Below are positions 22,425-27,086 of a stretch of DNA of 64,000 nucleotides, one piece after another (positions within the stretch are counted from its first letter, which is position 1; each line of letters opens with the position of its first letter). The position numbers were made by a program, and so were the translations under genes. Under the pieces are notes generated by a model. That model was not told the DNA's origin. It was given only the letters and a program-made list of their open reading frames with translations, and did no database searches. This DNA is from an uncultured Gammaproteobacteria bacterium (lineage in GTDB: Bacteria > Pseudomonadota > Gammaproteobacteria > CAWJPQ01), in assembly GCA_963844825.1 (NCBI GenBank), contig CAWJPQ010000006.1, forward strand, positions 136,512-200,511, written 5' to 3'.

Positions 22425-22565
22425 GGGGTCGGACCTATCTAACCTATTGTATTACTGGAAAATCAACAGCCACAATCGGCGTTTTTTGAGCTTAAATGCC
22501 CCTTTTTGGCCCCAGTTTGATAGGTCATGGGCCCCACTCTCAACACATCGACGCTGTATAACTGC
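22425..22565. repeat. Solo copy of the terminal ~140 bp (3'-side end) of the Y1-transposase element
   Basis: It starts with the terminal motif ggggtcggacctat and aligns along its length with 22566-22700 and 26451-26590 (shared ...ggcgttttttg.gcttaaa.gccc.tttt.gg...cagtttgatag). Confidence 0.8.
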
Positions 22566-23494
22566 GGGGTCGGACCCGCGTAACCGGATGTATCGAATAA
22601 ATTTTAGCGCCAGAAATAGCCGTTATTTTGGCTTAGAGGGCCCATTTCCGGGTCAGTTTGATAGCTCTCATCGGGCTCTCGCAGCACATGCCCGCCCTGA
22701 GCCCGGCTGACCTCCCGCCCGCGTCGGGCCACACCCAGCCGCCGCTTCACATCTTCAACAAACGACTCGCTGCCAATGGCAACACTGCCCGACCACCGCG
22801 GCTGCCGGGACAACTGGCCGTGTTGCAGGCCCTCCTCTAGCCAGCGCCGGTGCGCCTCGACCAACTGCCGGGGCTCGCGCAGCCCGCATAAAGCAGCCAG
22901 GCTTACCGTATCGATGACCCGGTAGCGATTCGGGGGCGCTTGAATCTCACAATAACCGCCGTGGGGCCACGCCCCCGGATGCGCCACGACGCCCGCCCGG
23001 ACCATGTTGAGATCAATGTACACCAGGCAACGGATCAGGTGTTCACCGGCCTCAACGGCGGTAGCATGGTAGCGGTCTTCCCAAAAAGCCCCCTTTCGCC
23101 CCTTGCGCCGGTTGTACTCCTGGCCCGTGCGGCCGGCGATCAGCTGGATGCTCTTTGGCAGAGCGTCGTCGCCCGTATCCTTGACAAGCAAGTGAATGTG
23201 ATTGCAGGTAACCACGTAATTCAGGACGCACAATCCAAACCGCTTCTTGGCCTCAAACAGCCAATAGCGCCAACGGGTACGGTCCTTGGCATATCTCAGG
23301 AGGAACTGTTGCCGGTGACAGCGGTGCGTAATGTGCCAGACATGACCCGGCACGAAGTAACGATGGGCTCTGGGCATGGCGCTTCATCCTTAAAGTAATC
23401 TTTTTGTCCTTAAAAAGATGCCTCTAAGCTTAAAATGCCCCGCGTTGAGGAGCAAACGCCATGGAAATTCAATGCGTTATATAGGTCCGACCCC
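22566..23494 (-). mobile_element. Intact insertion element with 12-14-bp terminal inverted repeats (GGGGTCGGACC...) carrying a Y1/HUH transposase
   Basis: Left end is ggggtcggaccc at 22566. Right end is ataggtccgacccc at 23481-23494. A subterminal hairpin atctttttg-tcctt-aaaaagat lies upstream of the transposase start. Confidence 0.8.
22604..23377 (-). CDS. Y1 HUH transposase, COG1943 / REP-associated tyrosine transposase (RayT)-like
   Basis: 257 aa starting MPRAHRYFVPGHVWHITHRCHRQQFLL. HUH motif is NHIHLLV. Candidate catalytic Tyr lies in GRTGQEYNRRKGRKGAFWEDRYH. Confidence 0.85.
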   Translation of the reverse strand: MPRAHRYFVPGHVWHITHRCHRQQFLLRYAKDRTRWRYWLFEAKKRFGLCVLNYVVTCNHIHLLVKDTGDDALPKSIQLIAGRTGQEYNRRKGRKGAFWEDRYHATAVEAGEHLIRCLVYIDLNMVRAGVVAHPGAWPHGGYCEIQAPPNRYRVIDTVSLAALCGLREPRQLVEAHRRWLEEGLQHGQLSRQPRWSGSVAIGSESFVEDVKRRLGVARRGREVSRAQGGHVLREPDESYQTDPEMGPLSQNNGYFWR

Positions 23495-23900
23495 CCGCCT
23501 GGCCCGCCTAAGTGGCGCGCAGGCGGCATTGCCTTCAACGGCGGCAACAACCCGTGGTCTTTGACTGATGTCAATTCGGTCCCCGAATGGGCGATTACAA
23601 TAGCCTTGGTATGGCACAGGCGGCGAACAGCTTCGCCGGGTACGGACGGGAGACGATTTTTATCGGATTGTTAAAGGGCCGGACGGGCCGCCGCTGTGCG
23701 GCTGGAGGGAGACCGGCCCGGCGCCCGTAGGGTCAATGGAACTTAAGCCTGCCGCCCGACTCGTACAATTACAGTTTATTTCAACACATCACCGTTCATT
23801 AAACCCTGGGGTGTGCATCAGCTGAGGCGCGCTCCCGGGCGCTTGAGGTCCGTGAACCTGCGGCCCCCGAGCCGGCGCGTGGCGACTGAAGGAGAACCAA

Positions 23901-26450: not shown

Positions 26451-26992
26451 GGGGTCGGACCTACGTAATCGATTGTTTTATTGCGCAATCAATGCCAAAA
26501 ACAGGCGTTTTTTGCGCTTAGAAGGCCCTTTTTTGGGTCAATTTGATAGCCCTAAGCCGGTTATCGCAACACCTGCCATGGTGATCTCGCCTTGTCTCGC
26601 GCCTCTGAGCCGTCCCACCCAGATGCTGTCTCACGGCATCAACAAACGACCCGCCCCCGGCTGTTACCCTGCTCTTCCCGACCGACTGCCCGTTGGAAGT
26701 CATGGCAAGTGACGAAGTCATTGAACACGCAAGGCTTAAACGGCTGCTTGGCTTCAAGCAGCCACTTGCACCGGTCGGTACTTGCGATAGGTCGCGGATC
26801 TCAGGAGAAATTACTGGCGGTGAGTTGAGCAAGGTGCGGGGCTAACCCGGCCCAGAGCAACGAGGGCTCTGGGCATGACGCTCCATCCTTAAGGCAATCT
26901 TTTTGCCCCCAAAAAGATGCCTCTAAGCTGAAAATGCCCTGCGCTGAAGAGCAAATGGAGTTATAATTCAGTGTATTAGGTAGGTCCGACCC
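26451..26992 (-). mobile_element. Internally deleted, non-autonomous copy of the Y1-transposase element (transposase remnant only)
   Basis: Same termini as the intact copy: ggggtcggacctac at 26451 and taggtccgaccc at 26981-26992. It retains the MPRA start (ATG at about 26877) and the homologous C-terminal coding remnant (SFVDAVRQHLGG... versus SFVEDVKRRLGV...). The HUH core is missing. Confidence 0.8.
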
Positions 26993-27010
26993 GCTACCTT
27001 TAAATACAGC

Positions 27011-27086
27011 TGGCTCCCCGGGACGGACTCGAACCGCCGACCAAGTGATTAACAGTCACCTGCTCTACCGACTGAGCTACCGGGGA
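27011..27086 (-). tRNA. tRNA-Asn (anticodon GTT)
   Basis: The reverse complement TCCCCGGTAGCTCAGTCGGTAGAGCAGGTGACTGTTAATCACTTGGTCGGCGGTTCGAGTCCGTCCCGGGGAGCCA folds as a cloverleaf. Anticodon loop is CUGUUAA. Confidence 0.93.

Follow-up and report, generated by a model that had tools for sequence, protein, structure and literature searches.

A proton-pump gene enclosed by TIRtron copies beside tRNA-Asn in an uncultured gammaproteobacterium

We describe a gene islet in a 64,000-nt stretch of DNA from an uncultured gammaproteobacterium (GenBank assembly GCA_963844825.1, contig CAWJPQ010000006.1, positions 136,512 to 200,511). This stretch is referred to as the window, and coordinates without a prefix are positions within it. 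The islet occupies 22425-26992 (4.57 kb), between a patatin gene and the 3' end of tRNA-Asn, and contains a gene for a proton-efflux ATPase together with three related copies of a TIRtron. TIRtrons are elements with terminal inverted repeats (TIRs) whose transposase, TIRYT, resembles the REP-associated tyrosine transposases (RAYTs; REP, repetitive extragenic palindrome).

Layout of the islet

The central gene of the islet (23901-26438, plus strand) encodes an intact P3A plasma-membrane-type proton-efflux P-type ATPase of 845 aa with E1-E2_ATPase, Cation_ATPase_N and Hydrolase domains. It scores 1006.1 bits against TIGR01647, for which the cut-off is 615.5, and aligns to positions 1-753 of the 755 in that profile. 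The host probably uses the pump to extrude protons, either to tolerate acid or to energise its membrane. Upstream is a 406-bp leader (23495-23900, plus strand) for which no homology was found to the TIRtron interior, other ATPase loci, the rest of the genome or Rfam, and whose local alignment scored 13.5 against a shuffle mean of 14.4. The leader can thus be dismissed as the lost half of the truncated TIRtron described below, and it yields no donor boundary. Apart from the tRNA, no Rfam family was detected in 22300-27200, and a consensus promoter scan of the islet returned nothing above chance.

To the left of the leader lies the intact TIRtron, a 929-bp repeat-defined element (22566-23494, minus strand) that ends in two copies of a ~100-nt module, each scoring 65 bits with the module profile. 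One module (22566-22664) covers the last 20 codons of the TIRYT gene, and the other (23397-23494) is upstream of the gene, 20 nt from its start codon. The gene itself (22604-23377, minus strand) encodes 257 aa with a Y1_Tnp domain (PF01797, 5e-9). Abutting the intact element is a 141-bp segment (22425-22565, minus strand), identified by repeat search, module profile and blastx, which begins with a terminal module of ~99 nt (22425-22523, 68.7 bits) and is cut off exactly at the start of the intact TIRtron. The first-pass annotation, a reading of the sequence without database searches, had placed a solo element end here. The element and its position were confirmed, but it is not a bare end: it retains the 3'-terminal ~22 codons of a TIRYT gene (blastx, aa 231-252, E=0.002), so that the segment is a truncated third element. 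On the other side of the pump, 13 nt past its stop codon, an internally deleted TIRtron (26451-26992, minus strand; repeats, module profile and blastx) lies in the same orientation as the intact copy. It has kept both ends with intact modules (26451-26549 and 26894-26992; 72.8 and 66.0 bits) and codons ~1-59 and ~199-256, but has lost aa ~60-198, the catalytic core, and is frameshifted. Another 18 nt separate it from the 3' end of tRNA-Asn.

A repeat search recovered the same arrangement. The 99-nt left end is present as three direct copies, at 22425, 22566 and 26451, and a 136-nt right-end repeat pairs 23365-23500 with 26864-26999 at 81% identity. Inverted termini pair 22425 with 23494 (29 nt, 86%) and 26452 with 26992 (30 nt, 80%), and GGGGTCGGACC, an 11-mer expected 0.08 times, was counted four times in the window. 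The open reading frames (ORFs), tRNA, repeats and gaps all lie where the first-pass annotation had put them.

TIRYT carries the motifs NHIH, WEDRYH and YIDLNM, which are conserved in 120 homologues and mark it as a RAYT-like HUH/Y1 tyrosine transposase. Its best NCBIfam match is NF047646 (REP-associated tyrosine transposase), with 71.1 bits against a cut-off of 80; at that score, and with no REP hairpins, it was not assigned to the classical RAYTs. Assignment to IS200/IS605 was likewise rejected, given 20.8 bits with the IS200 model NF033573 (cut-off 55), the presence of TIRs and a single intact copy. No PDB chain matched TIRYT in sequence. An AlphaFold2 model (pLDDT 84) found the Escherichia coli RAYT 4ER8 as its top fold match (TM 0.71), followed by the TnpA proteins of IS608 and ISDra2. 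About 110 C-terminal residues of the model had no PDB match, and aa ~140-235 are folded as helical/beta structure; Pfam detected Y1_Tnp only, even at E<=10, and no tail resembling DnaA_C, HTH_23 or HTH_28. Of 8,000 candidates scored in a protein search, at least 7,901 were TIRYT homologues at E<=1e-5. The TIRYT gene is single-copy in its genome. Four other Y1/RAYT-like paralogues are encoded there, at C11:581573-582214, C11:478737-479408, C7:58079-58723 and C5:6269-6643 (C numbers denote contigs), and are only 27-30% identical to TIRYT.

The flanks of the islet are backbone. On the left, the patatin gene (21210-22352, minus strand, by ORF call) is followed by 72 bp running from its start codon to the islet (22353-22424), which contain the anchor CTGCGAATTCTGTGCCAA conserved in the congener introduced below. 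On the right, tRNA-Asn(GTT) is intact (27011-27086, minus strand) and is a landmark common to both relatives with the locus; smr (27186-27800, plus strand) and mfd (28004-31516, plus strand) follow.

Empty sites and the movement of the pump gene

The genome holding the window (G000) is a 3.1-Mb metagenome-assembled genome (MAG) estimated to be 79% complete. The orthologous locus is present in just two comparison genomes: G001, the sole congener, whose orthologues are ~70-82% identical in amino acid sequence, and G041, a more distant gammaproteobacterial MAG. G001 is colinear with the window over 17691-22169 and 27249-31501 and lacks the islet alone. Its patatin gene is followed by a spacer of ~330 bp and then by tRNA-Asn, and the spacer contains no module, ATPase or TIRYT. 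Genome-wide, G001 has no ATPase orthologue (best match 32%) and no TIRYT. G041 is colinear with the window over 14000-19350, then runs straight to tRNA-Asn, smr and mfd, again with no islet. Judged by gene order in these two relatives, the islet is a lineage-specific insertion, gained after the split from the congener. The non-coding flanks are too diverged to be aligned with the empty sites, which leaves the insertion boundary unplaceable to the base. The proposal of a single-cargo islet is supported by both empty sites, and neither relative has the ATPase at this locus without the elements.

An opposing account, in which the islet is ancestral and was lost independently in G001 and G041, or is a chimera produced in the assembly of an incomplete MAG, appears very improbable. 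It draws on the small number of comparison genomes with the locus. Ancestry would require two independent, scar-free losses that left no module behind, and the congener lacks the ATPase and TIRYT throughout its genome, not just here. As to a chimera, the islet is flanked on either side by unique backbone in a contig of 221 kb, and its repeats, which are 64-88% alike, are too diverged for repeat-mediated misassembly.

The stretch beside tRNA-Asn has varied before. An HDOD-EAL gene and the patatin gene (19708-22352) are present in G000 and G001 and absent from the colinear G041 locus, which implies that this region has gained genes at least twice and that the latest gain is the islet, which lies closest to the tRNA. 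This lineage-to-lineage variation, repeated gene gain with the newest insert nearest the tRNA, and the distance of 18 nt would suit an integrase-type event at the tRNA-Asn 3' end, with the TIRtrons as passengers or later arrivals. The first-pass annotation had raised such a tRNA-targeted islet. We consider it unlikely: the islet and its surroundings yielded no integrase gene, the 25-nt tRNA 3' end does not recur in the window with up to three mismatches allowed, and the tRNA is intact, with the islet beginning beyond it and not inside it. In addition, the islet is the only one of ~20 element loci in G000 that lies near a tRNA.

The ATPase gene has a history of its own. Its closest homologues are 83-86% identical in amino acid and 79-83% in nucleotide sequence; homology is confined to the coding region, and the genes occur in six unrelated contexts. 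No module was found at 86 ATPase-homologue loci, comprising the closest six and 80 named GTDB loci. Together with the tree described next, these results indicate that the gene moves between genomes, though not habitually with TIRtrons. In a tree of 89 homologues the window protein falls in a fully supported six-member clade, phyla are mixed in the wider tree and the Pseudomonadota need at least 7-10 changes. The phylogeny does not track the species tree; the distribution is patchy, and the gene context differs in every close relative. G041 has an ATPase 86% identical to that of the window (L016:6001-8538; loci L016/L039), while its neighbouring housekeeping proteins are 55-79% identical to those of G000. 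There the pump gene stands directly after pta, across a 46-bp gap, in a ppsA-CMD-pta row, and contig C8 of G000 has ppsA and pta without the pump. The GC content and GC3 (0.86) of the ATPase gene resemble those of the backbone, and its composition is accordingly uninformative on foreignness.

End modules and the genes beside them

A profile built on the ~100-nt end found 32 modules in G000. Five of these are in the islet, 16 form eight gene-less inverted dimers, and the rest are solos; together with the single intact TIRtron, this is the genome-wide copy count that the first-pass annotation had proposed to obtain. Seven of the eight dimers were measured, at 217-331 bp, and clusters occur on contigs C6, C11 and C12. 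The module consensus is GGGTCGGACC-TAnCTAACC-nnTTGA ... CTTARA-GGCCCTTTT, and its terminus, GGGGTCGG, matches the motif GGGGWSAS at 7 of 8 positions, the exception being position 7 (G for A). Secondary structure was limited to a 4-bp terminal palindrome (GGTC-G-GACC tip), with no covariation and no conserved hairpin beyond the tip.

Outside the invariant tip, the median pairwise identity of modules across the genome is 51%. Modules of the islet are 66-78% identical to one another; the right ends R2 and R3 share 78% and the left ends L1 and L3 share 71%. The intact and internally deleted TIRtrons are 68-88% identical, depending on the block. Judged by this divergence, the module copies in G000 are old. 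No target-site duplication longer than 3 bp and no shared target motif was found at 12 element or unit boundaries, so that the look for target-site features suggested in the first-pass annotation turned up none. The elements do show a positional preference: over the 20 element loci in G000, a stop codon is no more than 30 bp away from 12 element flanks, and one flank lies near a start codon. Several element termini in G000 overlap the last 17-25 nt of an ORF. Tandem duplications of ~35 bp, comprising an element terminus and its flank, were observed at C12:16031-16075 (GGGTTGAGTAGGTCCGACCCGCACAACG twice) and in G001 at L035:~1590-1640 (CCTTGGTCCGACCCCACAGAATC twice; L numbers denote loci). These short duplications may have been left behind by activity at the element ends.

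The TIRtron unit recurs widely. Among 80 metagenomic loci with TIRYT homologues of 53-63% identity, a module lies beside the gene start in 63 and overlaps the 3' end of the gene in 56, and the ~0.93-kb architecture is found in most of them. Conservation of the unit across homologues this diverged indicates that gene and ends co-evolve as one. From this co-occurrence, which is the best available though indirect support for such a role, we infer that the modules are the cognate ends on which TIRYT acts. Class-level relatives carrying a 65% TIRYT homologue also have modules (10 in G003 and 2 in G035). The congener G001 has one module, which was ruled out as an orthologue of any in the islet as it sits at a different site. 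A dimer at C12:6951 is not present in the 195 bp of G001 contig past the matching gene end, which is some sign of family activity in the lineage after the split. A search of 72,556 plasmids for the TIRYT clade gave a single match, at 30% identity.

Individual metagenomic loci show further arrangements. At L203:7764-9081 and L207:5835-7152 a module has apparently been inserted within the TIRYT gene, with the gene match stretched to 1081 nt. At L142:2777-5069 a decayed TIRtron stands in tandem with an intact one, like the truncated and intact copies of the islet. L121, where TIRYT is followed by CheX and a response regulator and then by a Y1 fragment, was examined as a second bracketed locus and rejected, since its second Y1 lacks R1 modules and belongs to a different element.

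Genes coupled to modules were also found outside the islet. In a stretch of contig C11 (C11:278930-290377, equivalent to L132:1431-12878), a ygaP-like gene for a membrane protein of 190-205 aa (PF11127) and its terminator hairpin are present in four ~660-bp copies, 93-97% identical, within 10 kb. Behind each copy comes a like-oriented TIR module that is far more diverged, a fifth, solo module ends the row, and the copies are separated by unrelated genes (GGDEF-EAL, JmjC/cupin and SPOR/Sel1). The layout looks cassette-like. A fifth ygaP-like unit on contig C9 (C9:65686-66464) is 78% identical and has its module (65686-65782) just downstream of the gene, and the link between gene and module hence predates the amplification on C11. 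In metagenomic DNA, a BrnT/BrnA-like toxin-antitoxin pair lies between the right end of a TIRtron and a second right end (L155:581-2378), and two YhcG nuclease genes (DUF1016/PDDEXK), of which one is frameshifted, lie upstream of a TIRtron, each with a like-oriented module behind it (L186:523-4814).

Origin of the bracket and relation to known systems

We lean towards an origin of the bracket either by serial build-up in a TIRtron nest or by entry of an old block in some other way. The nest consists of three related copies (intact, truncated to 141 bp and internally deleted) around a horizontally roaming ATPase gene with its own leader, and the bracket would have been built by serial events in or next to it, with insertions behind the ATPase stop codon and into the upstream spacer. 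Alternatively, a block that was already old may have arrived by other means. The habit of the family of settling behind stop codons explains the deleted TIRtron 13 nt past that of the ATPase, and so accounts for the 3' copy with no need of a cargo unit. A currently working composite transposon is a less likely origin than either of these routes.

Several points weigh against this preference. All three transposase-bearing copies in G000 lie within one 4.6-kb stretch and are mutually nearest relatives, and all of the foreign DNA lies inside inverted element termini (22425 or 22566 to 26992). Three independent insertions are not an obvious source of that pattern, and a single TIR-bounded unit would give it. 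The order of events cannot be reconstructed, given the divergence of the non-coding flanks from the empty sites.

The same pattern speaks for a cargo-carrying Y1 unit, in which TIRYT would have brought the ATPase to this site as DNA enclosed by two element ends, a left one from one TIRtron and a right one from the other, and the unit would since have decayed. The two TIRtrons point the same way, which Y1 logic demands, and the foreign DNA is bounded on its outside by the inverted termini, so that these parts of the composite-like arrangement put forward in the first-pass annotation stood. HUH/Y1 enzymes are expected to make no target duplication, and none was seen; gene-plus-module units recur, as in the four ygaP-like units on C11 and the one on C9, the BrnT/BrnA pair and the YhcG genes. 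The unit itself fared less well, and we regard it as doubtful. The flanking copies are only 66-88% alike, which excludes a recent duplication, and a second copy of the unit is absent from the genome. The ATPase is unlinked to modules at all 86 homologue loci, comparably large cargo was found at none of the 80 TIRYT loci, and the TIRYT clade is near-absent from plasmids and typically single-copy, like domesticated RAYTs. Transposition by a TIRYT has never been experimentally demonstrated (PMC3733652, PMC6006769), which counts against serial insertion and cargo transport alike.

A broader suggestion, which we put forward tentatively and with the same doubt as the cargo unit, is that TIRYTs are active Y1 transposases that move DNA between or next to ~100-nt modules, and that TIRtrons are unrecognised gene carriers. 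The ATPase islet, the five ygaP-like units and the toxin-antitoxin and YhcG units would then share one mechanism, which might be akin to transposition of the composite or one-ended HUH type, or to a cassette system that recombines at the module. The cargo idea merits attention because small brackets recur in the TIRtron family; it is not established here.

The TIRYT/TIRtron family occurs very widely yet is unstudied, and the locus defines its anatomy well: the 0.93-kb unit is conserved, its end modules measure ~100 nt, gene-less dimers accompany it, and elements tend to sit directly after stop codons. The islet is also a clean natural case: in two relatives the site is empty, and a physiologically meaningful gene, for a eukaryote-type proton pump, is enclosed entirely by element ends. 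If the enzyme does move such DNA, RAYT-like HUH enzymes would provide a new route of gene mobility; if it does not, what we see is a commonplace hot spot of gene gain strewn with old selfish repeats. Delivery of the ATPase by TIRYT is unproven, and the islet is a clean example of the lineage-specific gain of a proton pump.

The islet element is not an undescribed Y1 type but fits the TIRYT/TIRtron class that Di Nocera et al. described in 2013 (PMC3733652). TIRtrons were defined there as RAYT-like genes with long inverted repeats and, in the majority type, a GGGGWSAS end motif, other TIR types also being known; their repeats form families of singles, dimers and clusters (PMC3733652). Most TIRYTs were later equated with subclass 2.1 of TnpA-Y1 (Quentin et al. 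2018, PMC6006769). In a full-text search the two terms were found only in PMC3733652 and PMC6006769, where the class is described from sequence analysis alone. The islet element shares with TIRtrons a single-copy RAYT-like HUH/Y1 gene, long TIRs in place of REP hairpins, GGGG-type ends and the moderately abundant occurrence of those ends as singles, dimers and clusters. It differs from them as described in that its conserved end is more than a short TIR, being a ~100-nt module with a subterminal CTTARA ... CCCTTTT, in position 7 of the end motif, and in that three generations of the element surround a 2.5-kb foreign gene, an arrangement not reported in PMC3733652 or PMC6006769.

Subclass 2.1 of TnpA-Y1 (PMC6006769) is resembled in protein length (257 aa, versus a median of 238), NHxH and WE motifs, a C-terminal extension, low copy number and the lack of REP hairpins nearby. 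The islet TIRYT has, however, YIDLNM, with M in at least 90% of the 120 homologues, where class 2 has Y---NP (YIELNP or Y[IV]HLNP), and it lacks the Pfam-detectable tail of the DnaA_C, HTH_23 or HTH_28 kind. The RAYT/REPIN system (4ER8; PMC3116915) provides the best fold match and has in common with the islet family a single-copy, chromosome-borne transposase and dispersed non-autonomous inverted-pair derivatives that lie mostly downstream of genes. Unlike that system, the islet family has no GTAG-tagged REP hairpins and its enzyme falls below the NF047646 cut-off (71 versus 80 bits). REPINs form clouds of near-identical ~100-bp sequences, whereas the dimers of the islet family, at 217-331 bp, are ~50-65% alike.

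In composite transposons such as Tn10 and Tn5, two insertion sequence (IS) copies bracket a cargo, and IS91 and ISCR are HUH elements that move adjacent genes by a one-ended process. The islet resembles the former in having two copies in direct orientation around one accessory gene, with the outer ends intact. It departs from them in that its copies are 66-88% alike and not near-identical, and in having neither a second copy of the unit nor a target duplication. With IS91 and ISCR it shares the HUH enzyme family, within which the islet enzyme is a Y1 transposase of the RAYT branch, and not of the DDE or IS91 type.

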